Shown here in pieces: positions 7,372 to 64,000 of a stretch of 64,000 nt of DNA (positions are counted from its first letter, which is position 1; every line of letters begins with the position of its first letter). Below the pieces are notes generated by a model. The model saw only the letters and a list, made by a program, of their open reading frames with translations, ran no database searches and was not told the DNA's origin. The position numbers and the translations under genes are program-made. This DNA comes from a bacterium (GTDB taxonomy: Bacteria; JAAXHH01): the NCBI GenBank assembly GCA_965203885.1, contig OZ241920.1, positions 3,858,323 to 3,922,322 of the forward strand, given 5' to 3'.

Positions 7372-7383
7372 CTCAATCGGTGT

Positions 7384-8488: not shown

Positions 8489-8497
8489 AGGTTCATC

Positions 8498-9679: not shown

Positions 9680-9839
9680 CGGGGTCTTTCGGGATTCGGG
9701 TGGTCAGGCGGCCTCAAGAGACCGGCCTAGCCTTTACCCAGGTAAATGGGGGATACAACTGACAACCATTTTTTCAGAGCAGAAGACATGGCAAACTAGG
9801 CATTTATCAAATCAGTGGTGAGTTTTTGGCTTCTCTAAT

Positions 9840-11395: not shown

Positions 11396-12810
11396 CGATT
11401 GACGTCCCTTGCGATTGCGATTATGCGTCTAAGCTCTTCGACTAACGGCCCATAGTCACGCACAAACTTTTCTGACAAGGCGGCCAGGTGCTGTCCCATA
11501 GCTTGTATGTTCTGACGAAGTGCTTCCTGCGTTCTCCTTTCAAAACTATCAAATGTACTTGTGATCTTTTTCTCGGTCTTCTGGAACGAGGCATTAAGGG
11601 CATTTGTAAATCGTTTCTGCGATTCATTGGAATTGTCCAAGAGCGCGATGTACCCGTGTTGGAGTTCTTGATGGGCCTCTTGTTGGCGGCCCAGCACCTG
11701 AGCCGACTGTTCGACTACGTTTTGGACCGATTGCTGAAACCTGCTTGTCAGCGTCTCAAGATTCTTTTCGATCATAGGAAACGCTTCAAGGGCTTGAGTC
11801 TTCAGCGAAGAGATTGCATCTAGGTGGCCGTTGAGATCCTTCGTCGCGCCTGACAGTCGCACTTGGATCTGCTCCATATTGTCGAGCGTTTCTGGAATGC
11901 TCCCTGCGTAGCCGACAATTTCGCGCAGGGATTTTTCGGATTCTTTGATCCCCTGTAGCGCCGTGTCAAAATTCCGTTCCAGCTGTTCGACGTGCTCCCG
12001 ATATCTCTCCTGCCATCTGAGCAGTGCACCAACAGCCTCGTTGAGCTGCTTGAAATTGTCGCCGAATTGCTCGTTCAACTGGGTGTTGAAGTCACGAATT
12101 ACCTCTTCAAGAGCCTCAATGAGTGCTTTCGAATTGCTCTCGGCCATTGTTTTTGCGAACTCACGAAATTCCTTGATCAGATCCTTCTGGCCATCCATGA
12201 AGTCCATGCGGAGCCTCTGTACCTGAGTAAGCAGACTGCTCTCGCTATCAGCAGAGATCGCCTTTCTCAGATTTTCCAAGGCCGTGCGCTGCTGTTCGGC
12301 TCCGTTGTCGATGGCCTCCTTGATCAACTCTAGAGTCCTGTGGATGGCAATGGCGGGATTTTCCTCCTCGACCGTGCCATCATGCCTTCTTGCATGTAGA
12401 AATCGAAGGCGAATCGCCATCAAGATGCCGAGAATACTGGTCAAAAATGCAAATTTCAGACCCTCCAACAATCGGGGCACACTCTCATCGATTTTCTCTA
12501 CATTGAAACCAATGAGGCCCCAGAAGATTCCGACGAAGGTACCGAGCACACCGATCGTGGTCAGCAAAGCGGGTCCACGAGCGTAAAGTGGACTATCCGG
12601 TGGCTGGCCCTTGAAATGGTAAAAGGCTATGAAAATCGCGGCAGTGGATATACCCAGAATCCCGACAGTGGATATATCAATCTCAAAGACAAAGATCCCC
12701 AGAATACCGACAGTGACAAGAACCAGAATTACGATAGCCGGCACAGTCTGGTCCTGAGATTTCGGCTGTGAATGACTACCCTTCACCTCTGCCATATTTC
12801 TGCCTTGCAC
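11392..12810 (-). CDS. zorA: MotA/ExbB-like proton-channel protein with a long coiled-coil tail (ZorA-like)
   Basis: 472 aa. N-terminal TM helices carry LLTTIGVLGTFVGIFWGL...LKFAFLTSILGILMAI, the MotA_ExbB signature. About 300 aa of heptad-like, Glu/Gln/Leu-rich helix follow. The real start may be the ATG at 12795 (MAEVKG). Confidence 0.75.
   Translation of the reverse strand: MQGRNMAEVKGSHSQPKSQDQTVPAIVILVLVTVGILGIFVFEIDISTVGILGISTAAIFIAFYHFKGQPPDSPLYARGPALLTTIGVLGTFVGIFWGLIGFNVEKIDESVPRLLEGLKFAFLTSILGILMAIRLRFLHARRHDGTVEEENPAIAIHRTLELIKEAIDNGAEQQRTALENLRKAISADSESSLLTQVQRLRMDFMDGQKDLIKEFREFAKTMAESNSKALIEALEEVIRDFNTQLNEQFGDNFKQLNEAVGALLRWQERYREHVEQLERNFDTALQGIKESEKSLREIVGYAGSIPETLDNMEQIQVRLSGATKDLNGHLDAISSLKTQALEAFPMIEKNLETLTSRFQQSVQNVVEQSAQVLGRQQEAHQELQHGYIALLDNSNESQKRFTNALNASFQKTEKKITSTFDSFERRTQEALRQNIQAMGQHLAALSEKFVRDYGPLVEELRRIIAIARDVNR

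Positions 12811-17078: not shown

Positions 17079-17082
<4 letters not shown>
14530..17082 (+). CDS. PSCyt1/PSCyt2/PSD (DUF1549/DUF1553) protein, intact paralog
   Basis: 850 aa with CLACHN, HYGERWGRHWLDVARYADSDG, GLTVGCARCHDHKYDP and a C-terminal NLDEFITRE. The signal peptide fits better from the M at 14569 (MKYRSGTLLILILAAC). Confidence 0.85.
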
Positions 17083-18539
<1,457 letters not shown>

Positions 18540-32382: not shown

Positions 32383-33498
32383 GTGCTGAAGCGATTCTAC
32401 GCGGACAATTTCCGCTGTCTGAAAAACTTTGAAGTCGAGCTCGACCAAGCTTGTGTCCTCTTGGGGCACAACGGCACGGGCAAGACCTCGATCCTGGACG
32501 TTCTGAGGAGCATTCAGAACCTGGTGGTCCGAGGTTCGAAGGTCGAAGCGGCGTTTCCGGCACGAGACGTGTCACTTCAGGAGGACGCTCGCCGCGACCG
32601 CCGGAAACAGCGCTTCGAGGTAGAAACCAGCACCGACGGTGACTCCTATCGGTACGCACTGACCGTGGAGCACACTCCCGACCACCGCAAAATGCGGATC
32701 ATCGAGGAGACCCTGCAACACAGGGAGAAACTGATCTTCGAATTCAGGAACGGCGAGGCGCAACTCTATCACGACGATTACAAAAAGGGCCCTTCGTACC
32801 CGTTCGACTGGTCGCAGTCGGGAATCGGCGTCCTGAATGCCCGACCGGACAATCGGAAGCTCACTCGGTTCAAGCAGGAGGTGGCGAGCTACATCGTAGT
32901 CGGCTCCTGCCCTCCGCTGGTGGAGCCGGAAACCCGATCGGAAGACGTTTTCCTCGAGCCTCTGATGCAGAACTTCGTGGCTTGGTACCGGCACACCGCC
33001 CAAGAAAACATGGGAGAGATACCAAATTTCTTCGAGGTCCTGCGCCAAGCCCTTCCTGCCTTCGATTCCATCATCCTGACGGAATCCGGAGAGAATTCAC
33101 GCGCCCTCAAAGCCGTGTTTCGGAGTCCTTCCGGAAAGGCGATCCGTTATGGATTCGACCAGATCTCTGATGGCCAAAGAGCCCTGATCACGTTGTACAG
33201 CCTGATTCTCCTGCCCGGCGAGAGCCGAACCTCGTTGTTCATCGACGAACCCGACAACTTTCTCGCCCTGAGGGAGATTCAGCCCTGGCTTGCTCACGCC
33301 GTCCAGTGCTGCGGAAAGTCGCTGGAGCAAGTGGTCGTGGCCTCGCATCATCCGGTAACCATCGACTACATGGCCGGCGCCGGCGGCCGTTGGTTCTACC
33401 GGGAAGAAGACGGTCCCGTTCGGGTGAACCCGGAGCCGAAGGTCCCCGTAGACGGCCTTTCACTCTCGGAAACCATCGCCCGGGGCTGGGAACGGTGA
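32383..33498 (+). CDS. ABC-type (AAA_21-like) ATPase, AbiLi/RloA/OLD-N-terminal-like
   Basis: 371 aa. Walker A GHNGTGKTS, signature-like ISDGQRALITL, Walker B LFIDEPDNFL and H-loop ASHHP. Confidence 0.75.
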   Translation: MLKRFYADNFRCLKNFEVELDQACVLLGHNGTGKTSILDVLRSIQNLVVRGSKVEAAFPARDVSLQEDARRDRRKQRFEVETSTDGDSYRYALTVEHTPDHRKMRIIEETLQHREKLIFEFRNGEAQLYHDDYKKGPSYPFDWSQSGIGVLNARPDNRKLTRFKQEVASYIVVGSCPPLVEPETRSEDVFLEPLMQNFVAWYRHTAQENMGEIPNFFEVLRQALPAFDSIILTESGENSRALKAVFRSPSGKAIRYGFDQISDGQRALITLYSLILLPGESRTSLFIDEPDNFLALREIQPWLAHAVQCCGKSLEQVVVASHHPVTIDYMAGAGGRWFYREEDGPVRVNPEPKVPVDGLSLSETIARGWER

Positions 33499-34025
33499 GC
33501 GCGAGGATCGTGCTGCTGTGCGAGGACCAGCAGACGGACAGTTTCGTGCGCCGTTTCCTGGCCAGAAGGAATTTCAGAAATCACGACATCCACACTCTAC
33601 CGCTACCCTTGGGCAGGCTATCGGGCGAACAGTGGGTGCGAACCAGATTTCCCAAGGAATTGAAGGCTGTTCGGCGCCGGGAAAGAGCGTTTCTGATCGT
33701 GATCATCGATGCGGATGCGTTCACGACCGATGAGAGACGAGATCAATTGAATCGCAGTTGCCGGGAACAGGAAATTCTGGAACGGAGACCGGGAGATCCT
33801 GTGATCATCGCCGTTCCCCGACGGAACATCGAAACTTGGTTCGCCTATCTGGATGGAAACGCTGTGGATGAAACAACGCAGTATCCGTCCCTGAGCCGCC
33901 CGAGCGATTGTCGCCGCCACGCTCGTGAACTGTACCGGATGTGCCATGAGGACCAGCAACTCCGGAAGCCCATTCCCCCGTCATTGACCGAAGCCTGCGG
34001 AGAATATCGAAGGCTGACCCGCTGA
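33495..34025 (+). CDS. RloB/Toprim-like protein (AbiLii-like)
   Basis: The GTG at 33495 overlaps the upstream TGA (GTGA). The 176-aa protein starts VSARIVLLCEDQQTDSFVRRF. Compare the RloB pattern ilivCEGekTE. LIVIIDADA provides a DxD and VIIAVPRRNIETWFAYL matches the SNPxFExW-like pattern. It is the in-frame tail of track ORF 33306..34025. Confidence 0.6.
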   Translation: MSARIVLLCEDQQTDSFVRRFLARRNFRNHDIHTLPLPLGRLSGEQWVRTRFPKELKAVRRRERAFLIVIIDADAFTTDERRDQLNRSCREQEILERRPGDPVIIAVPRRNIETWFAYLDGNAVDETTQYPSLSRPSDCRRHARELYRMCHEDQQLRKPIPPSLTEACGEYRRLTR

Positions 34026-34340
34026 CCATGCCTCCGCGCCTCAAGCTGAAACGCAGATGGTTCGATCCGGATAGCCGTTGCCGGACCGGAACCTGCAGCA
34101 ACCGACGTGTCTTTCGCCCGAACTCGGAACGACTTCGGCTCCGCCGGTTCTCTTCCGGAATACGCCCACTTGGGCACGACATAGAGTTCCGTCAGGAAAA
34201 ACAGCAACAGGATCAAGAATGGCGGACGAGAATGTTCCGTGAAAGTCGCCATCCAGTTTCGTACCTTGCTTTGCCGGGTGGCAACCGGTGGGGGAATTTC
34301 TTTTTCGAGACCGGCAACTCCAGGTTGCGGCCAGTGGGAT

Positions 34341-34742
34341 TCAGTGGAGATATATCACCGGCTTCAGACCCAGATATTTGACCATGGGCAGGAAGGCCCT
34401 GTCGGAGAACAGCAACGGGATCCCCTCGTCGACGCAGAAGGAGGCGATGACGACATCGACGGCCTTTCGAATTGTGACTCCGTTCCTGCGCAGTCTTCGA
34501 TAGCGCATGGCAACCCGGTGCGCCCGTTCGCGTCCCAGCAGGTCGAAAGACGGAAACTCCGACAGTGCTCGCTTTACCGCTCTGAAATCCGAGTCGTTTC
34601 GAATTCCCTGGAGGACTTCCACCAGAATCAAGTCGCCGGTTGCCACGACATCCTGTCCCAACAGGGCGTCGAGACGATCCGTTTCCGGTGTTGGAACGCC
34701 GTTGAAATAATCGATCCAGACGCTGGAATCGACCAGAACCAT
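34341..34742 (-). CDS. vapC: VapC PIN-domain toxin
   Basis: The start at MVLVDSSVWIDYF (34742) overlaps the vapB stop as ATGA. Confidence 0.85.
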   Translation of the reverse strand: MVLVDSSVWIDYFNGVPTPETDRLDALLGQDVVATGDLILVEVLQGIRNDSDFRAVKRALSEFPSFDLLGRERAHRVAMRYRRLRRNGVTIRKAVDVVIASFCVDEGIPLLFSDRAFLPMVKYLGLKPVIYLH

Positions 34743-34933
34743 CAGTCTCGCCTCATCTTGTCCAGATCGCCCGTCCAACGAATCTTGCCGCGCAATGCGC
34801 GGATTCCTTCCTGTCCCTTCAATCGAATCAACGACGCCAAGCCCAACTCTACGACCTCGCGCTTGGTCTTGGCCCCGGTGACACGCATGGCGCGTTCCAA
34901 GAGATCGTCGTCAATGACAATGTTCGTACGCAT
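34742..34933 (-). CDS. vapB: VapB antitoxin
   Basis: 63 aa: MRTNIVIDDDLLERAMRVTGAKTKREVVELGL. GGAGGG lies upstream. It is the tail of track ORF 34742..35800. Confidence 0.8.
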   Translation of the reverse strand: MRTNIVIDDDLLERAMRVTGAKTKREVVELGLASLIRLKGQEGIRALRGKIRWTGDLDKMRRD

Positions 34934-34953
34934 TTGGAGGCCCTCCAATCGAT

Positions 34954-34979
34954 GTGTATATGATAGGGAAATTATACAC
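34954..34979 (-). promoter_or_regulatory. Candidate vapBC operator/promoter
   Basis: A perfect inverted repeat GTGTATA-N12-TATACAC sits 20 nt upstream of the vapB ATG. It contains TATAAT (minus strand, 34976..34971). Confidence 0.45.
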
Positions 34980-35134
34980 ATCTGACAGCCGAGATCTAAT
35001 CCTGTGCGCTGAACCTTCAACTGAAACAGAGTGGCGAACTGATCGATTCCGTCGGTTCCGGAATTGACGAAGCAGGACTCTATTTCGCCTTTCCGATCCA
35101 GCAAAGCTCCCGCATCAGAACCGGATTCACCTGG

Positions 35135-37141: not shown

Positions 37142-37235
37142 TTCTACCGCGCAGACTCCTGGCGTTTCCCACCGCCGGCTTCCGCTACCTGCGGGAGAGA
37201 TTACGACTCCGCCTCCCCGTCCGCAACATCCGCCG

Positions 37236-40005
37236 CTACCGGAACCTGACCTCGACCCGGGTCAGAACGGGGCTGGGTCCGCCATTTGGAGTTGCGAGCC
37301 GGGCGCGGTACTGAAGCCAGGAATCGGACGACTCGCCGCCTGAAACGGGACCCGGCTCCAGGATCCAGCTTCCGGAACCCGGGGAACCTCTCCATGCCGC
37401 CTCCCGGAGGGAATCCTTGCTCTCGGCAGTCCGAATCTGGAGCGCGATTCCCGGTTCCCAAGGGAATCTCCGCATCCCATCCGATGGATACGGGACGGAC
37501 GCCCGGTCCGAACCGGTGCGGCGGAGAGACGTAGGTCTCGGCCAACTCCCGCGTGTAGATGTTCCCCGGGTCGCGGAGCATCTGGCCGTGCGGACCCACG
37601 GTGGGAAGCCAGGTCCTGTCCTGGAGGGAAAAGCCGTCCGGTCCGTTCCAATAGAGGACCGACGGGGTCGTGTGCTGGATGGGTTCCCCGGGGCGATCGA
37701 CGCTTCCGTCCCGCTTGTGGTTGAGCAGGAAGATGTCGGTCCAGCCGTCGCCGTCGAAATCGGCGGCCAGGGAGGCGGTCCCCGAGTCCCCCGGCAGGTC
37801 CAGGCGGCGGTCCGGGTCGAAACCGGAGGCGCTTCCCCAGTAGAGGAAGCAGGGGATGCTCCGGGCGGTGTTGCTGGAGTAGTTGGGCACGAACAGGTCC
37901 AGGAAACCGTCCCGGTCGAAGTCGGCCACGCTGGGGTCCAGGGCCGACATGTGCGGCAGCGGCCGACCCTCTCTCAAACGGAACCCGTCCGCGGAGCCGT
38001 AGTAGATCCGGATCTCCCCTTCCTTGTTCCGGGGATAGTCGTTGACCGGCGCCACCAGGTCCAGCCAACCGTCCGAATTGAAGTCGGCGGTCTCCAGGTA
38101 GGGGACCCTTCCCTTCTCGATCAAGCGGTGATGATTCTTCCGAAACCCTTCCTCCGAACCATAGACCAGGTGCAGGCCGTGCTTGGCGGAGCCACCGGCC
38201 AGGTCCAGGTATCCATCGCGGTTCCAGTCGGCCACCACCGGGGGAAATCCCAGGCCACCGATGGGAATCACCTCGCGCCGCGCAGGGGAGAAACCGGATT
38301 CCCCGCCGTAGAGGATCACGTAGCCGCGGCGGCCGCGGGCGTCGCCTTCGGCGGCGCCGATCACCAGGTCCAGGTAGCCGTCCCGGTTCAGGTCGGCGGT
38401 GACCGCCCCCAATTCCGGGTCCTCAACCGAGAGGACGGCCCGGCGCCGGGGCTCGTAGCCGCCGGCTCCCCCATACCAGACATAGACCCCGTTGAGGGTC
38501 ACCGGCCGGTCCAGCGCGTAGCGGGCCTCGGCCGAGACCAGGTCCACCCAGCCGTCGTCGTCCAGATCGGCCTGGGCGGTGCCCACCGTATAGCCGGCCC
38601 AGAGTTGGCCGCGCCGCCGCGTCGTATAGTTGCGCGTCCCGTCGCCCCAGTAGATGAAGTTGGGGTTGTAGCCGGTCCGGAGCCCCCCTTCCAGGTTGAA
38701 GAAGATCACGTCGGGGCGCCCGTCGTTGTCCACGTCGCCGATGCCGTTGCCATGGGCGCTCCGGGTGTCCAGCATGGATTTGTGGGCCGGGAGGAATTTC
38801 CCTTCCCGGTTCCAGAAGACGAAGGACTGGACGTTCAGGTCGTTGAACGAGTGGTGGTTGCTCACCACCAGCTCGGGCCAGCCGTCCCCGTCCAGATCAC
38901 CGGCGCTGACGCCCCTGGCGTGGACGGTGGCCAGAGGGGTCGGATCGGTCTCGGACAAACGCCCGTCACGGTTCCAGAAGACCAGGGAGTCGGTGTACCC
39001 GTTCCCGCTTCGGTCGGCAGAGGTCACGGCCAGATCCGGTAGCCCGTCCCGATTGAGATCCTGCACCGCCAACTGCCAAGGGTTCTCCACCTGAAGCCGC
39101 TGCCGGACCTTGAACCGGCTCGAAGCCGCCGCCAAGACATGGACCCCCGATTCGACGGCCGCAACCAGCTCGATCCGTCCGTCCCGATCCAGATCGCCCG
39201 CGCCCAGATGCCGTGCCTCCAGATCCAGGACGTGGGGCTTCTCCAGGTCCAACCCATCCTCCCCGGCTGCGTAGACGAAGACGCCGTTTCCGGTGGCCAG
39301 AACCAGATCAAGCGCATCGTCTCCGGCCAGGTCGGCGGCCAGGACCGCCGTTCCGGGCCCGGGGAGTGGGGACCGGCGTTCAGGATCGAACCCATGAGCC
39401 GAATTCCAGTAGACGACCGAGTGGCTCGACTCCTCGTCCCGACCCGGATTGGCGCAAGCGATGGCCAGATCCGGCCATCCATCCCGGTTCCAGTCCCCGA
39501 CGGCGGCTTCCCTCCCGGACCACGATCTCAGTTGCCGGCGCTCGGACACGGGGAACCGTCCCTCGGCCCCGTAGTAGATGAAGCTGTCGGACTTGTTGGT
39601 GGTGCCGCCCGTTCCGTTGACCACCACCACGTCGCTGACGCCGTCCCGGTCCAGGTCGGCCACCAACCCCTCGACCGCCCCGTCCGTCGGGAACGCGATC
39701 CTCCGGAGCGGATCGATGGTCTCGCCGTTGTTCAGGTAGACGTAGGCGTCTTCGTCTTCGCTGTGTCCGTGGCCGTTGGCCACGAACAGATCGATATGAC
39801 CGTCCCGGTTCAGGTCCAAACGGTTGATCAGTTGGATCCGGCCGCGCCGGGAAACGTAGATGTTGGAGCCGGAGTCCCCGAACGTCCCCTGGGAAAAGGC
39901 TTGAAAACCCTCGTGACGCCACACCCGGGCCCAAAGCCGGCCAGCCGCGCCCTCCCCGGCGAGAAAAAAGGCCGCCATCATTGCCACCACAACCTTCAGT
40001 TTCAT
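37236..40005 (-). pseudogene. FG-GAP/VCBS-repeat (ASPIC/UnbV-like) secreted protein with a 1-nt frameshift near 37446-37452
   Basis: It has many DLNRDGxxDL-type repeats and a signal peptide. Frame A reads ...IGWDAEIPLGTG and then junk. Frame B (ORF 37236..37475) continues IALQIRTAESKDSLREAAW...WLQYRARLATPNGGPSPVLTRVEVRFR. Removing one base in GGGAATCG restores ...PLGTGIALQIRT. Confidence 0.75.
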
Positions 40006-57102: not shown

Positions 57103-57552
57103 CTCCCGTTCACTCGCGGAAATCGGCTTCCACTTGCCCGTAGTCCAGCGGCGCCACAAGAGCGAGACCGCCGCCCCCGCTCCCAGAGCGATGTAGACTC
57201 CCGCGACGCCCAGACGGTATCCAATGGAGTGGTCGTACCACGTGACCAGGAGCATGGTCGACAAAATGAAGAACATGTCTTCTTTGTCCGACTGGTCGAG
57301 TTCCCCTCTCCAAAGCTTCGTCAGGACGGGTACGTCAGTGTTCTTGCGCCGGCGCCAGGTGAACTCCATCGCGAGAGCTCCGGAAACCAAGAATCCAAAG
57401 AACGTGATGGGGATCACCGCGTAGGGAGGGACAACCTCCGGGATTTCCTCCAAGGCTCCATGCAACCAGGAAGCGGCGAGGACAGCGATGATGAAGACCC
57501 CAACTCGGAGAATTCGGGATCTTGACAGGAAATCGTCATCTCCCATTGGCAA
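57085..57552 (-). CDS. Hypothetical four-TM membrane protein
   Basis: 155 aa with hydrophobic segments VGVFIIAVLAASWL, VIPITFFGFLVSGALAM, MFFILSTMLLVTW and GVAGVYIALGAGAAVSLL. Confidence 0.5.
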   Translation of the reverse strand: MPMGDDDFLSRSRILRVGVFIIAVLAASWLHGALEEIPEVVPPYAVIPITFFGFLVSGALAMEFTWRRRKNTDVPVLTKLWRGELDQSDKEDMFFILSTMLLVTWYDHSIGYRLGVAGVYIALGAGAAVSLLWRRWTTGKWKPISASEREGSAGK

Positions 57553-57623
57553 GCCTGTTGGTAATTGAATTGTACATGGAGATCAGATCGTGTCGAAGGC
57601 GTGCCTGAAACCGTTCAGAAATT

Positions 57624-57656
57624 TGCAGAAGGGGACAGTCACTTTCTTGCGCTGTC
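57624..57656. repeat. 33-nt REP-like repeat, copy b (direct orientation)
   Basis: TGCAGAAGGGGACAGTCACTTTCTTGCGCTGTC. It differs from copy a at three positions. Confidence 0.65.
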
Positions 57657-57854
57657 AGGACCACCGTGCACCGGGGACCGGAGAACTGTGAGAAAAGAGG
57701 GTGGCGGGGAGTGCGGCAGTTTTCTTGTCGCCGATTCCGGGCGGTAGTGCGGGCGACAAGGATGACCCCCGTCCCATTGGGGGTTTTCCTACCCCCGCCT
57801 CCGGCAGCTCGTTCTTGGAAACGACATCCGACCGTTGCTGGAGGGCCAGAAGGA

Positions 57855-58451
57855 TCACTTGTCCGACTGGCGCGCCGATTGAACAGATCTACTTTGTCGA
57901 GGCGAACCCCAGTACCAGGCCGCGAACGCGAGCGTACGCACTCGTCGGGCCACGCTGCGAACAGAGGCGGGGAACCAGGCCAACTCGCGATCAGAAGATT
58001 GCCGGGATTGCGCCGATCGAGCATGAACGCCGCGCAGACGCGCCGCTCTGACCCGCACTCCGATGGGCTGACAGCGAGCGTGCGGCACCAGAGTTCCGTC
58101 CGCTTCGAGCGGATAGGTCTCGGGCAGTCCGAGAGCCCGAACACCAGCCTGGGAATGTGCGTCACAGACGACCTGCCGGCGCGGCAAGACGCATCCCAGC
58201 AGAATCGGACCCGTGTCATCGCGAAGATCTTCCGGTTCGTAGGGCCACTTGGCGATGAAAGCCCGAAGATTCAATTGCGCCGTCACCATGTCTTCGTTCA
58301 GGTAGAGCACAGGAAAACTGTCCGGCGGATTCCAGCGGCCACCCAGCTTCCGCGCATAACTCGGATCAAGCGGATTGGTCCATGCCGGATCGGCGATACG
58401 CCACCAGACGTGCGCATCCGAAACCGTTTCGCGCCGCAGTTCCAGGGTCAC
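57855..58451 (-). CDS. RES-domain toxin (NAD-targeting family)
   Basis: GGRWNPPDSFPVLYL, then downstream R...E...S context. I prefer the GTG at 58451, which overlaps the Xre stop (GTGA). The track start is 58487. Confidence 0.75.
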   Translation of the reverse strand: MTLELRRETVSDAHVWWRIADPAWTNPLDPSYARKLGGRWNPPDSFPVLYLNEDMVTAQLNLRAFIAKWPYEPEDLRDDTGPILLGCVLPRRQVVCDAHSQAGVRALGLPETYPLEADGTLVPHARCQPIGVRVRAARLRGVHARSAQSRQSSDRELAWFPASVRSVARRVRTLAFAAWYWGSPRQSRSVQSARQSDK

Positions 58452-58921
58452 GCGTGCACTCGGTCGAATCGGAACATGTCGCGGCATGCCGCCACGACCG
58501 CTCGCGTATCACCCTGTGCCAACAGGTTCACGAGGGACACGCCGCCAAGCGATTGGATAGGTCTGCGCACGACGGCCGGGATTCGGTCGCGTTTGAGATA
58601 GTTTACGAGGAGGTCGGTGGCGCCCGCCAGATCCGACACTGCGCCAGCGCGTTCCGCGGGCACACCCTGCTGCAGCCATTTACCGACTGCTTGGCGGCTC
58701 ACACCGAAGAGACGGGCCGTTTCGGCTTGGCTCAGATCCCAGACCCTTAGGGTTCGCGCCAAGGACCCGCCTGCCCGTCGGCGATCAAGGCTACTGGTAA
58801 ACGCGTCCAGCCAAGCGCTTTCGTTCTCGTGCGCTCTGAATATCTGCTCGGCCGCCTCTTCCGGGCCGAGTCCGCTGATCGTCGCGACCGTTTTCACCCT
58901 TCGCTCTCCGATGGCCCGCAA
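58448..58921 (-). CDS. Xre-type antitoxin with a DUF2384/ParS-like toxin-binding domain
   Basis: It has an HTH (LSQAETARLFGVSRQAVGKWLQ) and a C-terminal PIQSLGGVSLVNLLAQGD. The start codon is uncertain (TTG at 58921). Confidence 0.7.
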   Translation of the reverse strand: MRAIGERRVKTVATISGLGPEEAAEQIFRAHENESAWLDAFTSSLDRRRAGGSLARTLRVWDLSQAETARLFGVSRQAVGKWLQQGVPAERAGAVSDLAGATDLLVNYLKRDRIPAVVRRPIQSLGGVSLVNLLAQGDTRAVVAACRDMFRFDRVHA

Positions 58922-59061
58922 CCATAAGTCAACCGCTACCGAAAGTCAACTTGTGATCCCGTTAAGCCAGCCTTCCGAGCGCGGCGCCGATGACGATACC
59001 TGATGTGATTGAACTGCCTCTCTCACTCCGTCGCCGTCTACCGGCAGCCGGTCTAGGGAGT

Positions 59062-59493
59062 CTATTCGTCACAGCCGTCGCAGGCATAGTGATCGGGGGC
59101 GTCTATCACGTAATCCGTGAAATAAATTCGTTCATTGTCGTCTGTACGGTCACAATCCGCCCCTGTACTCACTTCCTGCGATTCCCCCTTCCGCAGGTCC
59201 CACACTGTGAATTGTTCGAGGCCGGTCCACGTGCCGTTACACTTGATTCTCGCGTTCAGTGATACACGCTCAAGGTGTGTTTTCCCGCCTTCGACCTCAA
59301 CATATAAATACCCATATCGGGACCACCCGGAAACGACTTTGAAATCGAACTCCACGTCAGGGGCCACCGTGCAACGGAACTCTCTCTCTTCGTTATCCGT
59401 CGGACCCAAGTCCCGACACAAATACCAGTCCGTCCCGAACGAAACACTGGAGATGAGCAGAGTCAGCAATAACATACAAACCGACTTGATCAT
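59062..59493 (-). CDS. Small secreted Cys-rich hypothetical protein
   Basis: The start MIKSVCMLLLTLLISSVSFG (ATG at 59493) overlaps the upstream stop as ATGA. GAAGGTGGG lies upstream. The region is lower in GC. Confidence 0.5.
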   Translation of the reverse strand: MIKSVCMLLLTLLISSVSFGTDWYLCRDLGPTDNEEREFRCTVAPDVEFDFKVVSGWSRYGYLYVEVEGGKTHLERVSLNARIKCNGTWTGLEQFTVWDLRKGESQEVSTGADCDRTDDNERIYFTDYVIDAPDHYACDGCDE

Positions 59494-59924
59494 TTTCCCA
59501 CCTTCGGTTTTCTCCACCATTCCTTAGAAATCCCTTTTGGGTTGTTTTTCAATTCCTGAACTACACCTCGAATGTAGTTGCAAGTGTCCTTCACGATATT
59601 CGAGGATGACATAACACCCCCACGGTAAGCCATTAAATCCCCCTGGGAATTCCACAGGAGTAAATAGTGGCCGTGTTCGTACTCATACTCTACGACAAAG
59701 TCTGCCGCTTCCTGTTTGATTGTGGGGATAATTCCGGCACATTCCTTCCGCTGCAACAAATGGATTGTATACTCGTACCGCGTGGGACCTTCAGTTCCAA
59801 GAGGAATATCGGTGACAGATCCGATATAGAGCCGCACCAAGGAAGAATCGCCCGTCTCTGCCCCAAACACAACCCCGACGGCCAAGGCGGCTAGTGCCAG
59901 TGTGAGAATCAGTTTGCGTTTCAT
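59490..59924 (-). CDS. Small secreted hypothetical protein
   Basis: 144 aa with signal peptide MKRKLILTLALAALAVGVVFG and AAAGGAAAT upstream. Confidence 0.5.
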   Translation of the reverse strand: MKRKLILTLALAALAVGVVFGAETGDSSLVRLYIGSVTDIPLGTEGPTRYEYTIHLLQRKECAGIIPTIKQEAADFVVEYEYEHGHYLLLWNSQGDLMAYRGGVMSSSNIVKDTCNYIRGVVQELKNNPKGISKEWWRKPKVGK

Positions 59925-60021
59925 TGGTTTATTTCCTTTGTATTAGCCAAGAAGCCTGTCCGCGTCTTCCGTGTTTCCATCATGGCTAGCATTATACCGG
60001 AAATCTATGACACTTCTTTGG

Positions 60022-60285
60022 CTAGTTTGTTATATAATTCCCCTTATCAAACCAATCAATGAACTCCGAGACCCCTCCTCTGATTTCCTTTCCCCAACAT
60101 ACATTCTCCTTCCAGAGCACGATTGCATCCGAACTGACATCTACACCGGACCGCTTTTCTCTGAACTCCCGACGAACTGCCGGAGCCGCCGGACATCTAT
60201 CAACACTCCTTCTATTCCCCTGCTGAATATCAGATTTCGTCACCGAGATCCGTCTGATGATCTGACGTTGCACTTCTCCATCCAT
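60022..60285 (-). CDS. Possible small hypothetical protein
   Basis: 87 aa from the ATG at 60285, with GAAGG 9 nt upstream. It lies immediately after the nucleotidyltransferase stop. The opposite-strand ORF 59971..60339 looks non-protein-like. Confidence 0.3.
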   Translation of the reverse strand: MDGEVQRQIIRRISVTKSDIQQGNRRSVDRCPAAPAVRREFREKRSGVDVSSDAIVLWKENVCWGKEIRGGVSEFIDWFDKGNYITN

Positions 60286-60290
60286 TCCCA

Positions 60291-61211
60291 CTACCTTCGA
60301 TACCGGGAGATCAACGTCTCCAGATCATTTAGGATCTGATTCCCCATTTCCGGCAACACGATCACCTTTCGGAGTGAACCAAAGTGGATCTCCAGGCACT
60401 CCATGAGAACCCGACCAATGGCCTTCTCGCTCACCGAATTCCGGACCATGCTTTTCGTCACAAGCTCCTCCATCGCCTGCTCTTTCGCCTCGAACCAGCC
60501 CATCAACCGATCCAAACTCCACTCTCCGGCACGGATGGAGTTGTATACCTTGGAATCCCGATCCAGTACCAGATGACCCGAACTCAATATCTGCTCACAC
60601 TCCAGCATGAGCCGGATCAGGTTGTATCCGTACTTCACATCGTACCCGTACTTTTCGATCGACTCCGCCCGTTTCGGATTCCTCTTGGCCGTTTTCTTCT
60701 TGATCTTGGCCAGCTGCGCACAGGCGTACCCGCGGAACGTGTGATAGGACCGTTTCGACAGGAACAGTCGACGGTTACTCCTCAGATGCTCAAATACGGA
60801 TGAGGACTTCGTCACACACCGCCTCGGGGCAAACAGGGAGTCGAGCATATTCGGCTTGTTCTGCATGGTCAGGTGGAAGTACTTCACGATACCGTAGATC
60901 ACGAAGTCATACGTCAGACCATGCTCCTTGTACTCGACATGATGGCGCTGTAGCTGCTCGAACGACTCCGGCTTTCGACCGAATCCAGGGATGTATCCCG
61001 TGAGATGAGGGAACACCATCTCCTTACGTGGGATCGTGAATCCAACGATGTCCCGGTCCGAGCTATTCCGATCCCGGCACCCGTACGCCTCGCTTCCCAT
61101 GATGCACTCGTACATCAGATTGTCCGAGACATACCTCAGTGCCGGAGGGAGTTCAATCAACCCCTTCCGGACAAATTTGACAAAGTGAGAACTATTCGCC
61201 CCTTTGCTCAT
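60291..61211 (-). CDS. Pol-beta-superfamily nucleotidyltransferase (RlaP/pfam10127-like)
   Basis: 306 aa with IMGSEAYGCRDRNSSDRDIVGF (the GS...SDxD NTase motif) and YGYDVKYGYNLIRLMLECEQILSSGHL. Confidence 0.65.
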   Translation of the reverse strand: MSKGANSSHFVKFVRKGLIELPPALRYVSDNLMYECIMGSEAYGCRDRNSSDRDIVGFTIPRKEMVFPHLTGYIPGFGRKPESFEQLQRHHVEYKEHGLTYDFVIYGIVKYFHLTMQNKPNMLDSLFAPRRCVTKSSSVFEHLRSNRRLFLSKRSYHTFRGYACAQLAKIKKKTAKRNPKRAESIEKYGYDVKYGYNLIRLMLECEQILSSGHLVLDRDSKVYNSIRAGEWSLDRLMGWFEAKEQAMEELVTKSMVRNSVSEKAIGRVLMECLEIHFGSLRKVIVLPEMGNQILNDLETLISRYRR

Positions 61212-61615
61212 TGATCCTCCTGATCCTTCTGGACCCGATACTCCAGACCATAGAACTGGAACCCGAAGATCGATATCAGATCCCGAGCCTTACGCGTGAA
61301 CCTGACTGTCTCGACTTCCCCTTTCTCATACTCCATCCACTTCCGGGCAGCCGTGAGATAGTCCGAATCCGACTTCAGAAACGTGTTCGGATCACCCTGT
61401 TTCCGATAGAGCCTCGCGGTAGACAACAGACCCTCCTCAAAGTTCCTTTTTGCCTGGTACACAGTGTTTCCCTGGGCAAAGCAGTCCACTTCGACCGCCT
61501 CGGCAAACCAGCCATCTCCGTGACCTTGCCGCACATGTACTGGCGCATCCATCGAAGGAAGACGATCAAGCCCCCGACAATGGCCGCGCCGAGGCTGCCT
61601 TCCGGCATCGCTCAA
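61208..61615 (-). CDS. HicB-like (UPF0150 fold) small protein
   Basis: VHVRQGHGDGWFAEAVEVDCFAQGNTVYQAKRNFEEGL matches the HicB N-domain pattern. The start is either the TTG at 61615, overlapping the helicase stop, or the ATG at 61552. Its stop overlaps the NTase ATG (ATGA). Confidence 0.55.
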   Translation of the reverse strand: MSDAGRQPRRGHCRGLDRLPSMDAPVHVRQGHGDGWFAEAVEVDCFAQGNTVYQAKRNFEEGLLSTARLYRKQGDPNTFLKSDSDYLTAARKWMEYEKGEVETVRFTRKARDLISIFGFQFYGLEYRVQKDQEDQ

Positions 61616-64000
61616 CGGCGCCGATTTCTCTGGGCGAGAGCGCGGAGGATCTCGTCGAGCACCGTCTCCAATTCGGCGCCGACGTCTTCGGCCAGGAACC
61701 TGAGCACGAAGTAGCCGTGTCGCTGCAGCAGGGCGTCCTTGCTGCGGTCCCGCCGATAGGCCTCACGGTCCGCCAGATGGTGGGCGCCGTCCAGTTCCAC
61801 GACCAGCCGGGCCGAAGGGTCGAGGAAATCGACTTCCATGTGGTTCTGCCCGCAAAACGGAATGGGCAACCGTTCGTTCAACCGGAATCGACCGCGGGTT
61901 TCGGGCAGACTTTGCAGCCGACGAAAGAAGAACGCTTCGCTGGAGCTGCGGGCTTGCGAGGCATCGGGACTGCCGTCCGGCGATGCGGTCGTCAGACGAC
62001 GGAACAGGTCGCCGAGCGGAGCATCTACGCCATCCCGTGACAGACGCCTCACACTCCCGGCGTACCGCTGTTTCCAGGCTCCGTCGGCGGGGAGGGGGAC
62101 GGACGGGGGCCAACCGGGAACCGCGCTGGCCGGCGACGAAATCGTGTATCCAAGGGACTCATAGCTGCGGCGCCGCCTGTCGAACATGCGGGACAACATC
62201 GGTACGTCCAAGTCCGCATAGTCGTACACGCGGACCTGGCGCTTGGAGCGGCGCCTGCGATGCAACCGGCCGACGTACTGCGTGATGGTCCCACGCCAGG
62301 ACACCGGCATGGTGAGAAACAACGTATCGAGCCGCGGGTTGTCGAACCCTTCTCCGACGAACCGGCCCGTCGCCAACAACACCCGTCCGGCGGCGTTCTC
62401 GGCGGCGCGCGCCAGGGCGGAGGCGAGTGCCTTCCGTCCCATGCCTCCCTGGAGCGACACGACGTCGAGACCGTCGGCCCGGAGCTTTTCGGCGAGAACC
62501 TCGAGATGACCGACGCGTTCGGTCAGCACCAGCGGCGCCTGCCCGCCGCGGACGCTCTCCGCCACGTCCGCGCAGATGAGAGAGTTCCGAAGCTCGTCGG
62601 CAGCCAATTGACGCAGGATCCGCTGGAACTCGACGCGCTGATCGGCGTCCGGTTCTCCCTGGACGCGGAAGCCCGTCGGCCGGACGAGCACGTCGCGGGT
62701 GAACGGCGTCGTCAGTGCCTGCAGCCCGGCATCCACCCGGCGACGGACGGGCCCGCACTGCATGAACACGATGGGGTGATGACCGTCCTTCCTCGTCACC
62801 GTCGCCGACAGTCCCGCGACGTACTTCGCCTTGGCGCGACCGACGGCCAGTTCGAAACCGCGGGCGGGAACATGGTGACACTCGTCCACGATCACGAAGC
62901 CGTAGTCCGCGACGCAGTCGTCCACCTCGCCCCGGCGCACCAGGCTCTGCATCATGGCGACGTCGACCCTTCCGGTGAGCTTCCTCCGTCCCCCTCCCAG
63001 GCGACCGATCTCCCCCTCCGCGATGCCCAGAAACTGGGACAACCGGGCGACCCACTGATCCAGCAACTGTTGGCGATGGACCATGACCAGGGCGTTGACG
63101 CCGCGCTCCGCAATCAACCATGCAGCCACGACGGTCTTCCCGAACGCGGGGCCCGCCGCCAGAACGCCGGTATCGTGCGCCAGCAGGGCTCTCGCCGCCG
63201 CTTCCTGTTCCGGACGCAGAGATCCGCGGAATCGAAGCGAAAGAGGGACTCCCGAGTTGCGCTCGTCCCTGATCTTGGACCTGATCTTGTACCGGGCGAG
63301 CAGTCCTTCGACCGGTTCCAGGCAACCCCTTGGAAATCCAATGAATTTCGATCCATGCTCCACGCAGTCGATGATCCGCGGCTTGCCGAACGTCGACAGG
63401 CGCATCGCCTGCGCCCGGTAGAACTCGGGATTCTGAAATGCGGCCAACCGCATGAGCGCCGCGACGATGCCCGGCGGCAAGGCGTCCTTGGCGACGTAGA
63501 TCCGATCGCCGAGAACGATCTCCAAGAGATCGGGAACGGGACCGCCGATGGGCGGAAGCGGAAGTCGACGGGACGGCGGTGCAGACCACGGCGCGTCGGC
63601 GAAGGCGTCTTCGTGCTCCACCACCGCCGCGACTCCCATGACGGGTCCTCGCTTCTCCGCATGGGACACGATGGACTCCGCCTGCGCCGCAGGGATCCGG
63701 CGAAGCTCCGAGAGGAACGCCCACTGGTCCGGATACGGCTTCAGCTCGGAATCGACGAAGACACTGTTGCCGTTTCGACGCGGCCCGTGCTGCAGCGGAA
63801 GGGCGATGAGATTGCCGAATCCGCCCCGGGGCAAGGTATCCTGATTCGGAAAGAACCGGTCGTAGGAACGAAAACCCAGGTCCGGTCGCTCCTCCATCGC
63901 CTCGGTGAGAATCAGGGAGCCCAATCGGCGAGCCAGACCGGCCGGCAACGCCTCGTCGAAAAACATCCACGCGTGGCCACCGTTCCCGGATCGGGACCGT
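61612..64000 (-). CDS. AEP primase-polymerase-like / SF2 DExH helicase / DUF559 endonuclease fusion protein; N-terminus outside the window
   Basis: The frame stays open upstream of the track start. My own translation of 64000..63964 gives RSRSGNGGHAW before MFFDEALP, an AEP sGxGxH motif. GGFGNLIALPLQ follows. Helicase motifs are AGPAFGKTV (I), VIVDECHH (II), GLSAT (III) and QYVGRLHR (VI). The C-terminal EVDFLDPSARLVVELDGAHH...GYFVLRF matches DUF559/Vsr-like. Confidence 0.75.
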   Translation of the reverse strand, partial: RSRSGNGGHAWMFFDEALPAGLARRLGSLILTEAMEERPDLGFRSYDRFFPNQDTLPRGGFGNLIALPLQHGPRRNGNSVFVDSELKPYPDQWAFLSELRRIPAAQAESIVSHAEKRGPVMGVAAVVEHEDAFADAPWSAPPSRRLPLPPIGGPVPDLLEIVLGDRIYVAKDALPPGIVAALMRLAAFQNPEFYRAQAMRLSTFGKPRIIDCVEHGSKFIGFPRGCLEPVEGLLARYKIRSKIRDERNSGVPLSLRFRGSLRPEQEAAARALLAHDTGVLAAGPAFGKTVVAAWLIAERGVNALVMVHRQQLLDQWVARLSQFLGIAEGEIGRLGGGRRKLTGRVDVAMMQSLVRRGEVDDCVADYGFVIVDECHHVPARGFELAVGRAKAKYVAGLSATVTRKDGHHPIVFMQCGPVRRRVDAGLQALTTPFTRDVLVRPTGFRVQGEPDADQRVEFQRILRQLAADELRNSLICADVAESVRGGQAPLVLTERVGHLEVLAEKLRADGLDVVSLQGGMGRKALASALARAAENAAGRVLLATGRFVGEGFDNPRLDTLFLTMPVSWRGTITQYVGRLHRRRRSKRQVRVYDYADLDVPMLSRMFDRRRRSYESLGYTISSPASAVPGWPPSVPLPADGAWKQRYAGSVRRLSRDGVDAPLGDLFRRLTTASPDGSPDASQARSSSEAFFFRRLQSLPETRGRFRLNERLPIPFCGQNHMEVDFLDPSARLVVELDGAHHLADREAYRRDRSKDALLQRHGYFVLRFLAEDVGAELETVLDEILRALAQRNRRR

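Follow-up and report, generated by a model that had tools for sequence, protein, structure and literature searches.

What does a single bacterial polypeptide do with a primase-polymerase, a helicase and a nuclease joined end to end? The question is raised by a minus-strand reading frame at the edge of the window, by which we mean the whole 64,000-nucleotide stretch analysed (contig OZ241920.1, positions 3,858,323 to 3,922,322). A first-pass annotation made from the letters of the DNA described the product as a fusion of an archaeo-eukaryotic primase (AEP), an SF2 helicase and a DUF559 nuclease, and read it as a nucleic-acid-targeting defence or mobile-element protein rather than a replication gene.

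Domain organisation of the fusion protein

The window holds 795 of about 940 codons. The frame is intact, with no stop before that at 61612-61614, and it is, as previously noted, still open at the window edge. A full-length homolog of 940 residues, 97% identical to the window protein (P0001, from locus L001 on a 98%-identical contig), provides the ~145 N-terminal residues absent from the window, among which are AEP motif I and a cluster of four cysteines that never varies. All the motifs quoted in the first-pass annotation are present in the minus-strand translation of 61612-63999, and profile searches returned significant Pfam matches for each of the three domains: PF22548 for the N-terminal AEP region (E = 5.7e-44, 150.9 bits), ResIII (8.6e-15), DEAD (1.7e-07) and Helicase_C (2.3e-04) for the helicase core, and PF04480 for DUF559 (3.7e-13, 49.7 bits against a cut-off of 20.6). 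These matches establish the domain identities, and the organisation is as follows.

61612..63999, minus strand: AEP-TOTE PrimPol / XPB-like SF2 helicase / DUF559 gene, 3' 84% (translation; Pfam, NCBIfam and PADLOC matches)
63673..63999, minus strand: AEP (PrimPol) catalytic domain, C-terminal half (PF22548; alignment to CAPP 7nqd; invariant residues)
63223..63672, minus strand: region between AEP and helicase, P0001 residues ~255-404 (conservation, AF2 model)
62185..63222, minus strand: SF2 helicase core of XPB/Rad25 type (ResIII, DEAD, Helicase_C, 6p4f, Foldseek)
61837..62184, minus strand: mostly helical conserved linker between helicase and nuclease, P0001 residues ~751-866 (conservation; AF2 helices 785-842)
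61636..61836, minus strand: DUF559 endonuclease domain, Vsr-like and PD-(D/E)xK-related (PF04480, PDB 3hrl)

The catalytic motifs of all three enzymes are invariant among 72 family members, and to judge from these residues all three look active.

The PrimPol domain

The window fragment aligns with just the C-terminal half of the PF22548 profile (positions 121-229 of 230), the first half of the domain being encoded beyond the window. P0001 covers positions 2-229 (E = 4.1e-92, 308.4 bits), and thus about 145 residues, with motif I (D118-x-D120), lie upstream of position 64000; for this reason motif I was seen only in P0001. Both the fragment and P0001 exceed the gathering cut-off of 27 bits. Motif II and the candidates for motif III fall inside the window.

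63973-63990, minus strand: AEP motif II, SGNGGH (translation)
63838-63864, minus strand: YDRFFPNQD with invariant Asp residues, the candidates for motif III (translation, conservation)
63790-63825, minus strand: AEP-domain motif GGFGNLIALPLQ (translation)

Across the 72 sequences D118, D120, S149-H154 (S149, G150 and H154 among them), D192 and D199 are invariant. So are C53, C62, C69 and C72, which belong to a module inserted in the AEP domain that is probably zinc-binding.

The closest solved AEP is CAPP_A (PDB 7nqd/7nqe; Zabrady et al. 2021, PMC8211822), with E = 1.2e-09 against 7nqd and a Foldseek TM-score of 0.74 for 7nqe. Common to CAPP and the window family are an N-terminal helix with 'F..LF.GREDV', the motifs DxD, sGN.G.H and FP.Q...GG.GNLI..PL, and the order of PrimPol followed by helicase is that of the CAPP-Helicase type (PMC8211822). 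The PADLOC model PDLC01465, 'PrimPol, CAS associated', matches at 1.7e-85, and the score for the NCBIfam PrimPol_Msp model NF040561 is 43.3 bits, below its cut-off of 200. Unlike CAPP, the window family has an insertion of ~55 residues that carries the four invariant cysteines, as well as an added C-terminal Vsr-like nuclease, and it shows no Cas or CRISPR linkage.

The XPB-like helicase and its connecting regions

The region that precedes the helicase has no Pfam match in profile searches. It begins as a low-confidence linker and continues as a folded alpha/beta module (AF2 pLDDT 78-89 for residues ~300-400). Conservation in this region is high along AAFQNPEFYRAQAMR, where nearly all positions are invariant or at least 90% conserved. 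The helicase core itself is complete, as had been reported from its motifs.

63133-63147, minus strand: Walker A, AFGKT (translation)
62872-62886, minus strand: DECHH (translation)
62800-62808, minus strand: SAT (translation)
62782-62808, minus strand: SAT followed by R-K-D at the RED position of XPB (alignment to XPB structures)
62257-62280, minus strand: motif VI, QYVGRLHR (translation)

GKT, DECH, SAT and QxxGRxxR are invariant in the 72 sequences. XPB/Rad25 proteins (6p4f, 6p4o, 2fwr) provide the best match to this motor in both sequence and fold: the E-value against XPBII (PDB 6p4f) is 9.7e-16, and the top 18 Foldseek matches in a whole-chain comparison are all XPB. The helicase combines the SF2 motifs with a counterpart of the RED motif after motif III, the two features of the XPB/Rad25 type; RKD aligns residue by residue to RDD/RED, 'SATVTRKDG' standing opposite 'TATPERDDG' and 'TATFEREDG' of the XPB structures, with K rather than E or D as the middle residue. 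Orthology to XPB was rejected on the scores of 58.8 bits for NF045503 against a cut-off of 610 and of 26.6 for TIGR00603 against 328.7.

The Vsr-like nuclease domain

The DUF559 assignment made earlier for the C-terminus holds, with its diagnostic stretches in place.

61825-61839, minus strand: MEVDF (translation)
61777-61803, minus strand: VVELDGAHH (translation)
61735-61758, minus strand: YRRDRSKD (translation)
61696-61707, minus strand: VLRF (translation)

Besides its above-cut-off profile score, the domain matches the DUF559 structure PDB 3hrl at E = 2.6e-05. E867, E880, D882, G883, H886, R894, R897, K899 and D900 are invariant in the 72 sequences, at least 90% of which also retain D869; we take the conserved acidic and His residues to correspond to the catalytic residues of Vsr.

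Distribution of the family and its variants

The first-pass annotation had referred to database families of AEP-helicase fusions labelled as components of biological conflict. Profile matching identified this family as Pfam PF22548, 'TOTE conflict system, Archaeo-Eukaryotic Primase domain', for which the RefSeq name is 'TOTE conflict system archaeo-eukaryotic primase domain-containing protein'. The family to which the window gene belongs is thus already catalogued, and it is very large. Close homologs number more than 8000, at least 593 species genomes, mostly of PVC bacteria and Acidobacteriota, carry the gene, and the AEP domain alone matched 1450 clusters (50% identity) at E ≤ 1e-30. Nor is the three-domain fusion out of the ordinary: thousands of database proteins have it as their standard architecture, and AEP-TOTE, ResIII/DEAD and DUF559 occur together in each of the best 120 database matches save the truncated P0005, which is without DUF559. 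Pairwise identity across phyla is at least 53% in a set biased by its composition from the 80 best matches. Several nearest relatives cross phyla: Patescibacteria and Verrucomicrobiota share sequences at 76% identity, and Myxococcota and Burkholderiales each share them with Acidobacteriota at 80%.

A branch of the family found in E. coli, on plasmids and in transposons differs from this architecture in the absence of both DUF559 and the helical linker. Of 5426 complete E. coli genomes, 684 to 1730 have a relative and at least 684 the DUF559-less variant, which in this species fills a variable cargo position in an integrase-AlpA-YfjI-YfjJ island. An AEP-TOTE and helicase protein of 44-55% identity is present in about 48 plasmid records, its alignment ending near query residue 765; of the 98 strong-match plasmids, 41 are typed as conjugative. 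The plasmid copies sit in accessory regions, several of them adjoining ParB-like, DUF932, ArdC-like zincin, PAPS reductase, DUF736 or RadC/JAB genes. The variant also lies beside toxin-antitoxin (TA) modules on plasmids and in Tn3- and Tn7-like contexts. On Sphingobium pTB1 the variant stands fifth in an operon that also encodes an rve/Mu-type transposase, TniB and TniQ and whose genes overlap by 4 bp, a transposon association that is unique among the plasmids. Among 50,697 phage records the fusion is present in none, just the helicase part matching at under 29% identity.

Genomic setting

The fusion gene lies at the conserved edge of a variable defence/TA island. Encoded at 50.5-61.6 kb of the window are a PDC-S01 ATPase (3.7e-165), a NACHT antiphage protein that is EruA-like (1.9e-274), an N-terminal fragment resembling DrmD, an antitoxin of AbrB/MazE type and RES-Xre, together with two genes immediately downstream of the fusion gene.

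61208-61552, minus strand: 114-residue orphan gene, immediately downstream and not part of the unit (island cargo)
60291-61211, minus strand: RlaP-family Pol-beta nucleotidyltransferase gene, downstream and not part of the unit (PF10127, E = 3e-15)

These two genes had been described as joined to the fusion gene and counted towards a defence or mobile-element role. Between the two there is indeed an overlap of 4 nt (61208-61211), but the join to the fusion gene was not borne out: an overlap of 4 nt there requires a TTG start (61615), and the gene call at L001 starts the 114-residue gene at the ATG equivalent to 61552, leaving a gap of 60 nt. The pair has a GC content of 53.5-53.9%, against 66.2% for the AEP gene. 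The syntenic locus L174 has neither gene, and no homolog of the 114-residue protein or of the fusion protein occurs at any of the 80 RlaP-homolog loci. As low-GC cargo of a variable island they were rejected as partners and lend no support to a defence role.

At L174 the fusion gene is 90% identical and occupies the same position between the same flanks, and just Phd-PIN is found where the window has its island. This copy is broken by an IS insertion and by an in-frame deletion of 40 codons that removes motif II. At another locus, L173, DNA homology stops inside the fusion gene and the flanks are unrelated. Upstream of the gene, L001 and L174 have HepT/MNT. We conclude that the window gene can be dispensed with, that it stands alone at the margin of a hypervariable defence island, and that the fusion gene is accessory, horizontally transferred and losable.

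Elsewhere most neighbours are ordinary metabolic genes, as at L002 and L003, where the fusion gene is packed between lptFG and an AdoHcy hydrolase gene, and TA or defence-type neighbours occur in a minority of loci. The 137 nearest neighbours include 6 AbiEii, 4 PIN and 3 PDC-S01, counts that stand without a matched control. No neighbour family is common to more than 6 of 82 loci. TPR, OB, TBP and Cas families are absent from the 25 most frequent Pfam/PADLOC families of the 137 nearest neighbours; therefore none of them recurs, although single occurrences could be hidden at this depth. The fusion gene thus stands alone, without a conserved partner. Nor do replication-initiator, partition or phage replication genes recur at the 82 loci; together with the phage result, this places the homologs outside plasmid and phage replication modules, and the accessory or conflict-like contexts bear out the earlier preference for a defence or mobile-element protein over a replication gene.

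Relationship to known systems

Several characterised systems resemble the fusion protein in part. Archaeal XPB-Bax1 likewise pairs a motor with a nuclease, but Bax1 is a separate subunit, whereas the window nuclease is fused and Vsr-like. In type IV restriction enzymes of the SauUSI type (PDB 7clg; PADLOC mREase_IV) an NTP-driven motor and a nuclease also share one stand-alone polypeptide; the helicase-level match is weak, the nuclease is of the PLD type, the helicase belongs to a different clade and there is no PrimPol. Hhe, which Gao et al. reportedly described in 2020, is said to combine a helicase with Vsr. It shares the logic of a motor-nuclease fusion but differs in helicase clade and has no PrimPol; searches with the PADLOC HheA model gave no match to the window fragment at E ≤ 1 and none to full-length P0001 at E ≤ 0.001. 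The ARMADA/Druantia YprA defence helicases, which carry C-terminal Vsr nucleases (PMC12458937), are also of another helicase clade and without PrimPol. A related PrimPol domain is present in DRT7/UG10, there in a defence protein, and in E. coli PPRT; in both its partner is a reverse transcriptase rather than an SF2 helicase and nuclease, and PADLOC RT_UG10_large matches the AEP region of the E. coli relative (WP_000233452.1) weakly (3.7e-05). None of the defence systems in PADLOC 2.0 has the fusion protein as its basis; the matches are to the PrimPol model labelled as Cas-associated and to helicase regions of a generic kind.

Functional interpretation

This abundant family unites three apparently active DNA enzymes in one chain. 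The window contributes context rather than novelty: an island-edge gene from which the canonical TOTE partners are missing. The family's 'conflict system' label rests only on comparative genomics, and the defence role is an inference. On balance the fusion protein is probably a self-contained nucleic-acid-targeting conflict enzyme, directed against phages or plasmids. The ATP-driven XPB-like motor would load on target DNA and open it or track along it; the tethered Vsr-like nuclease would nick or cleave that DNA, like Bax1 with archaeal XPB; and the PrimPol domain would start and extend DNA on the exposed single strand, by which aberrant or competing synthesis might be imposed on invader DNA or single-stranded intermediates converted to duplex. 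We identified no partner or domain for self/non-self discrimination, and literature searches returned no published experiment on any family member.

The same three activities would serve DNA repair or damage tolerance, with the nuclease nicking a lesion or mismatch, the motor opening the duplex and the PrimPol filling in or re-priming, in effect a bacterial analogue of XPB-Bax1 combined with PrimPol. Vsr is itself a repair nickase, the motor is specifically XPB-like down to the motif at the RED position, archaeal XPB works with a nuclease, and 6p4o, the XPB-Bax1 complex, is among the top structural matches. Sequence conservation in the family is very high, and some loci lie among housekeeping genes. 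PrimPols related to enzymes of mobile genetic elements perform translesion synthesis and end joining (AgaPP, PMC11724360), and an E. coli PrimPol-RT has a part in the response to oxidative damage (PMC12439943). We nevertheless consider a repair role unlikely: the family is distributed sporadically across phyla, the gene is decaying in the close relative at L174, the window copy sits at an island edge, the DUF559-less version is cargo of mobile elements, and the NCBIfam XPB score falls far short of the equivalog cut-off. Quite unlikely, in our view, is a role in the service of a mobile element, with the protein acting as a primase-helicase to prime replication or complementary-strand synthesis of an element that is entering the cell or transposing; the chromosomal DUF559-bearing copies would then be relics or domesticated versions. 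The plasmid homologs, the many conjugative plasmids among them, the plasmid/ICE accessory neighbours and the transposase-TniB-TniQ operon of pTB1 point in this direction, but no integrase, relaxase, T4SS, replication-initiator or transposase gene adjoins the gene in the window, no mobile-element genes recur at the 82 loci of the DUF559-bearing form, the pTB1 association is unique, phages lack the fusion, and a nuclease domain is of no obvious use for priming.

Two further proposals place the protein in a multi-gene system. Pfam and RefSeq name its AEP domain after TOTE, which PMC12458937, citing Aravind, Iyer & Burroughs 2022, expands as TPR, OB, TBP, Effector; the window protein could then be the effector, with TPR-OB and TBP partners encoded either past the edge of the window or at another place in the genome. 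Such partners were found near none of the copies examined: there is no TPR, S1/CSD or TBP gene within 13 kb downstream in the window, none within 6.6 kb upstream at L174, none that recurs among the 137 nearest neighbours and none in the E. coli or plasmid contexts, which makes this proposal improbable. An accessory role in CRISPR adaptation, of the CAPP-Helicase type, is suggested by the relationship to CAPP and by the PDLC01465 match. It is effectively refuted for this locus, where the window contains no CRISPR array, no Cas family recurs among the neighbours, PrimPol_Msp scores below its cut-off, and L001 and L174 have MNT/HepT beyond the equivalent of position 64000.

For the conflict enzyme that we favour, the Pfam and RefSeq labels and the precedent of PrimPol domains in CAPP and DRT7/UG10 are supporting observations, alongside the invariant active sites, the lone and mobile gene, its defence-type surroundings and the cargo setting of the DUF559-less variant. 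Counting against it are conservation unusually high for a defence protein, as seen in the 80 best matches, the mostly metabolic neighbours in other genomes, and the lack of such a system in PADLOC 2.0. Were its function to be shown, a role could be assigned to thousands of proteins annotated as 'DEAD/DEAH box helicase', and a use of primases in immunity could be revealed. More tentatively, and with considerable doubt, one may picture the protein as a complete immune system in one gene, whose restriction mechanism depends on primers made de novo by the AEP domain; the searchable literature shows no experimentally validated defence system with an AEP-XPB-like fusion. In such a system the motor would, for example, open invader DNA, primers or DNA made by the PrimPol would stall or mark replication intermediates, and the nuclease would then cut. 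The nuclease-less relatives in about a third of complete E. coli genomes and on conjugative plasmids might then use the PrimPol-motor core in conflicts between elements.

A three-enzyme protein with intact active sites

Translation of 61612-63999 (-) yields 795 stop-free codons ending in TGA at 61612-61614 and still open at the window edge, as the first-pass annotation had described, and each of the motifs quoted there is found in its place. The proposed union of an AEP (PrimPol), an SF2 helicase and a DUF559 (Vsr-like) nuclease in one polypeptide is statistically secure in profile searches: the ORF matches AEP-TOTE (PF22548) with E = 5.7e-44 over profile positions 121-229 of 230, ResIII at 8.6e-15, DEAD at 1.7e-07 and DUF559 at 3.7e-13. 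The complete gene of a 940-residue homologue, P0001, which is 97% identical to the window protein, is found on L001, a metagenomic contig of 5.9 kb that matches 59026-64000 of the window with 98% identity. P0001 covers the entire AEP-TOTE profile (4.1e-92), from which we infer that some 145 codons, including AEP motif I, lie beyond position 64000. The layout of the protein, in P0001 numbering (window residue = P0001 number minus 145), is as follows.

Residues 17-27: N-terminal helix, F..LF.GREDVY
About 55 residues: cysteine insertion with invariant C53, C62, C69 and C72
AEP core: D118-x-D120, S149-G150...H154, D192, D199 and GGFGNLIALPLQ
Connector: low-confidence linker 265-291, then a folded module (~300-400) without family match, with the conserved stretch AAFQNPEFYRAQAMR
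SF2 motor: GKT 432-434, DECH 517-520, SAT 543-545, QYVGRLHR 719-726
Residues ~785-842: helical linker
DUF559 domain: E867-V-D869, E880-L-D882-G883..H886, R894/R897/K899/D900

Aligning 72 family members that are 62-80% identical to P0001 shows each listed motif residue to be invariant or conserved in 90% or more of the sequences, and a second alignment of 76 genome-derived sequences gives the same pattern. The active sites are intact, and since the catalytic residues are conserved across the family, all three catalytic activities appear, from sequence, to be under selection. The Cys4 insertion is probably a zinc module, which by analogy with the zinc modules of other primases may aid primer initiation. 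The AlphaFold2 model of the fusion protein (mean pLDDT 74.9, pTM 0.47) is confident for the domains and unreliable for their mutual arrangement.

The motor is XPB/Rad25-like. It matches XPBII of S. tokodaii with E = 9.7e-16 (phmmer), and its top 18 Foldseek matches are XPB chains throughout, XPB-Bax1 complexes among them. The segment SATVTRKDGHH pairs residue by residue with TATPERDDGKH and TATFEREDGRH of XPB, an alignment that places R-K-D at the site of the signature RED motif. As an XPB ortholog the motor was rejected, scoring 58.8 bits against a cut-off of 610 bits. The closest relative of the AEP is the CRISPR-associated PrimPol, CAPP (7nqd; E = 1.2e-09, TM-score 0.74); the N-terminal helix is common to both, whereas the Cys4 insertion is present in the fusion only. 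The PADLOC model 'PrimPol, CAS associated' scores 1.7e-85 for the AEP and 2.5e-147, over the full length, for a relative from E. coli. The nuclease domain matches the DUF559 structure 3hrl.

A large family with a nuclease-free branch

Proteins matching the fusion at E <= 1e-10 number more than 8000, a lower bound. The best 120 matches are 63-97% identical and mostly 920-990 residues long, a few being shorter and apparently truncated, and all but the truncated P0005 have the same Pfam domain combination. The window protein is a routine member of this large family, which already has a name and is widely annotated, and the three-domain fusion is the standard architecture of the family and nothing peculiar to the window locus. 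Searched alone and counted in clusters at 50% identity, the AEP domain gives 7718 clusters at E <= 1e-3 and 1450 at E <= 1e-30, whose lengths, metagenomic fragments aside, group at about 780-830 and 930-990 residues.

Relatives are encoded in at least 593 genomes, with one genome per species. The best 80 are chiefly from Verrucomicrobiota, Planctomycetota and Acidobacteriota, and include Gammaproteobacteria, Lentisphaerota, Myxococcota, Riflebacteria, Spirochaetes and Patescibacteria. The nearest relative within these 80 is often from the same phylum and in several cases from another; median identity is 66.6% within phyla and 64.6% between them, in a sample biased by consisting of the 80 best matches.

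The shorter form is found on plasmids, about 48 records of which hold a 44-55%-identical protein of some 790-815 residues. The alignment ends near residue 765, leaving AEP-TOTE and helicase without linker or DUF559. In the settings listed here it lies in the accessory part of a mobile element.

Salipiger plasmid: adjoins RES-Xre and T4SS genes
Alloyangia plasmid: adjoins HipA and BrnTA
Pantoea plasmid: between a resolvase and a Tn3-type DUF4158 fragment
L087 9337-12796 and L088 9306-12204 (alphaproteobacterial plasmids; Rhizobium, Paracoccus): three tandem tyrosine-recombinase genes, convergent
L085 1002-9271 (Sphingobium yanoikuyae pTB1): 226-aa protein, rve/Mu-type transposase, TniB, TniQ and, fifth and last, the AEP-helicase

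The recombinase genes of L087 and L088, in a 'recombinase in trio' arrangement, follow the AEP-helicase gene within about 40-60 bp. The pTB1 operon, with its tightly overlapping genes, has a Tn7/Tn5053-like layout; its transposase-TniB-TniQ association recurs in no other plasmid record, and a general Tn7-like association was rejected, the Sphingobium TniQ having no other plasmid match that adjoins the fusion.

In E. coli, the variant has matches in 1730 of 5426 complete genomes; in 684 of these the match spans 80% or more of the variant's length. The E. coli relative (WP_000233452.1, 786 aa), named in RefSeq as a TOTE conflict system AEP protein, occupies a slot after integrase-AlpA-YfjI(DUF3987)-YfjJ in an island adjoining ycdU (loci L171 and L172). 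In strain OHT76-1 the slot contains only a truncated copy, with a 1652-aa AAA protein and a 478-aa hypothetical protein encoded behind it, which suggests that it is a hotspot of cargo exchange. None of 50,697 phage records contains the fusion, only the helicase part finding matches there, at less than 29% identity.

The fusion gene at the edge of a hypervariable island

The closest informative relative (L174), whose fusion gene is 90-91% identical, has both flanks in common with the window. Its upstream flank is a HepT/MNT toxin-antitoxin pair, the MNT gene of which is also present in L001, and its downstream flank comprises MIP, two more genes, UbiD and a HEAT-repeat gene, the counterpart of 50457-44785 in the window. 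The interval between the fusion gene and MIP is 0.85 kb in L174, where it holds a Phd-PIN pair, but 11.1 kb in the window (50457-61597), where the following genes are found.

50556-55735 (+): DUF4143/AAA_14 ATPase, PADLOC candidate PDC-S01 (3.7e-165), and, with a 4-nt overlap, an EruA-like NACHT antiphage protein of 1301 aa (NCBIfam 'antiphage EruA', 1.9e-274; 914 bits, slightly below the 1000-bit cut-off)
55769-56014 (-): Phd-like antitoxin ORF, DNA 69% identical to the L174 Phd gene
56089-56640 (+): 183-aa ORF resembling only the N-terminus of DISARM DrmA/DrmD, possibly a gene fragment
56637-56957 (+): AbrB/MazE-type antitoxin
57855-58487 and 58448-58921 (-): RES toxin and Xre antitoxin
59062-61552 (-): low-GC block (49-54%) of four genes, encoding a 114-aa orphan, an RlaP-family nucleotidyltransferase (PF10127, 3e-15) and two small proteins

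We conclude from the two intervals that a hypervariable defence/TA island lies here, with the fusion gene on its conserved edge; within the island, 55741-58921 is a stretch of TA-like and relic genes. By eye, the NACHT protein has a PD-(D/E)xK nuclease-like motif at its C-terminus, and the two small proteins of the low-GC block (144 and 152 aa), which are without family match, have signal-peptide-like N-termini.

The genes joined downstream, the 114-aa and RlaP genes, to which the first-pass annotation had given weight, proved to be island cargo. The GC content is 49-54% in their block and 66% in the fusion gene; they are missing from the syntenic L174 and they show no linkage elsewhere, and they were rejected as functional partners. 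Near the RlaP homologues of 80 loci there is neither a homologue of the 114-aa protein nor a fusion gene. A co-directional ORF abuts the start in 49 of the 55 RlaP homologues with enough upstream sequence, these ORFs being mutually unrelated. A scan of 60100-61800 for promoters and terminators found none, which says nothing on co-transcription.

All-against-all clustering of every ORF from 82 loci revealed no true neighbour common to more than six of them, the only widely common clusters being alternative-frame ORFs within the fusion gene. The families most frequent in the 137 nearest flanking proteins are AbiEii (6), PIN (4), DUF4143/AAA_14 (3) and MarR (3) in Pfam, and PDC-S01 (3), AbiE (2) and DrmD/BrxH-like helicases (2) in PADLOC; the remainder are varied metabolic genes. 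TPR, S1/CSD, TBP and Cas are not among the 25 most frequent Pfam or PADLOC families of these proteins. No replication, CRISPR or TOTE partner recurs in these neighbourhoods, and the gene stands alone, 22 bp from its neighbour in L001 and 15-45 bp from unrelated neighbours in another locus (L002). TOTE denotes 'TPR, OB, TBP, Effector' (PMC12458937), so that the fusion belongs to Pfam's TOTE-named family, yet the locus in the window lacks the make-up of a canonical TOTE operon.

Decay and relocation

The L174 copy (6688-11497) is interrupted by a DDE_Tnp_1 IS element (9254-11044), which cuts the DUF559 segment off the fusion gene; the homology segments flanking the element have about 11 bp in common, as would be expected of a target-site duplication. 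The same copy has suffered a 120-bp in-frame deletion, with loss of residues ~121-160 including AEP motif II. It is decaying, a pseudogene in the making. In a further relative (L173, 82% DNA identity), homology begins and ends within the ORF, and the flanks, with PhoX, glycosyltransferases and a BNR protein, are unrelated. We conclude from these two copies that the fusion gene is dispensable and relocates as a single gene; it is accessory, found at an island edge in the window and as cargo in other settings.

Function

The overall reading in the first-pass annotation is essentially right and the finding real: on balance, the fusion protein is probably a self-contained nucleic-acid-targeting conflict enzyme. 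Its three parts would share the work: opening or tracking of DNA by the XPB-like motor, cutting of that DNA by the tethered Vsr-like nuclease, and synthesis by the PrimPol on the strand left exposed. The analogy to XPB-nuclease pairs, the very high sequence conservation and some housekeeping neighbourhoods would also suit an enzyme of repair or damage tolerance, a role that we regard as unlikely for this accessory gene. A function in priming or establishment of a mobile element, for which the plasmid branch speaks more strongly than the chromosomal, nuclease-bearing copy of the window, seems to us rather improbable. The family name evokes a canonical TOTE effector, which is very improbable at a locus of this organisation, and we give next to no credence to a CRISPR accessory, setting the kinship of the AEP to CAPP beside the lack of Cas among the frequent flanking families.

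For the preferred conflict enzyme, a literature search on the AEP-TOTE fusion family and the E. coli accession found no experimental work.

Other genes of the window

A complete Zorya type II system, its genes overlapping by 4 nt, lies in a low-GC (49-51%) patch at 9840-12810 (-), and an ATPase gene that may be another defence gene lies further along.

11392-12810 (-): ZorA2 (PDLC00637, 1.6e-92)
10691-11395 (-): ZorB2 (PDLC00641, 6.7e-90)
9840-10694 (-): ZorE2 HNH nuclease (PDLC00645, 6.9e-79)
32383-33498 (+): AAA_21 ATPase with PADLOC matches to HEC-01A, AbiLi, PDC-M25A and AriA (best 1.3e-22)

The ORFs adjoining this ATPase, 33306-34025 and 34239-34985, gave no matches. The 934-aa ORF at 37201-40005 (-), suspected from its size to be a paralog, turned out to encode an FG-GAP repeat protein that shows no similarity to the fusion. 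Proteins of the PSCyt1/PSCyt2/PSD1 (DUF1549/DUF1553) type are encoded at 2442-5051 and within 14530-18539, where a DUF1501 protein (17079-18539) directly follows 14530-17082; such pairs and the FG-GAP protein give the window's genome the look of a PVC bacterium, being hallmarks of Planctomycetota/Verrucomicrobiota.
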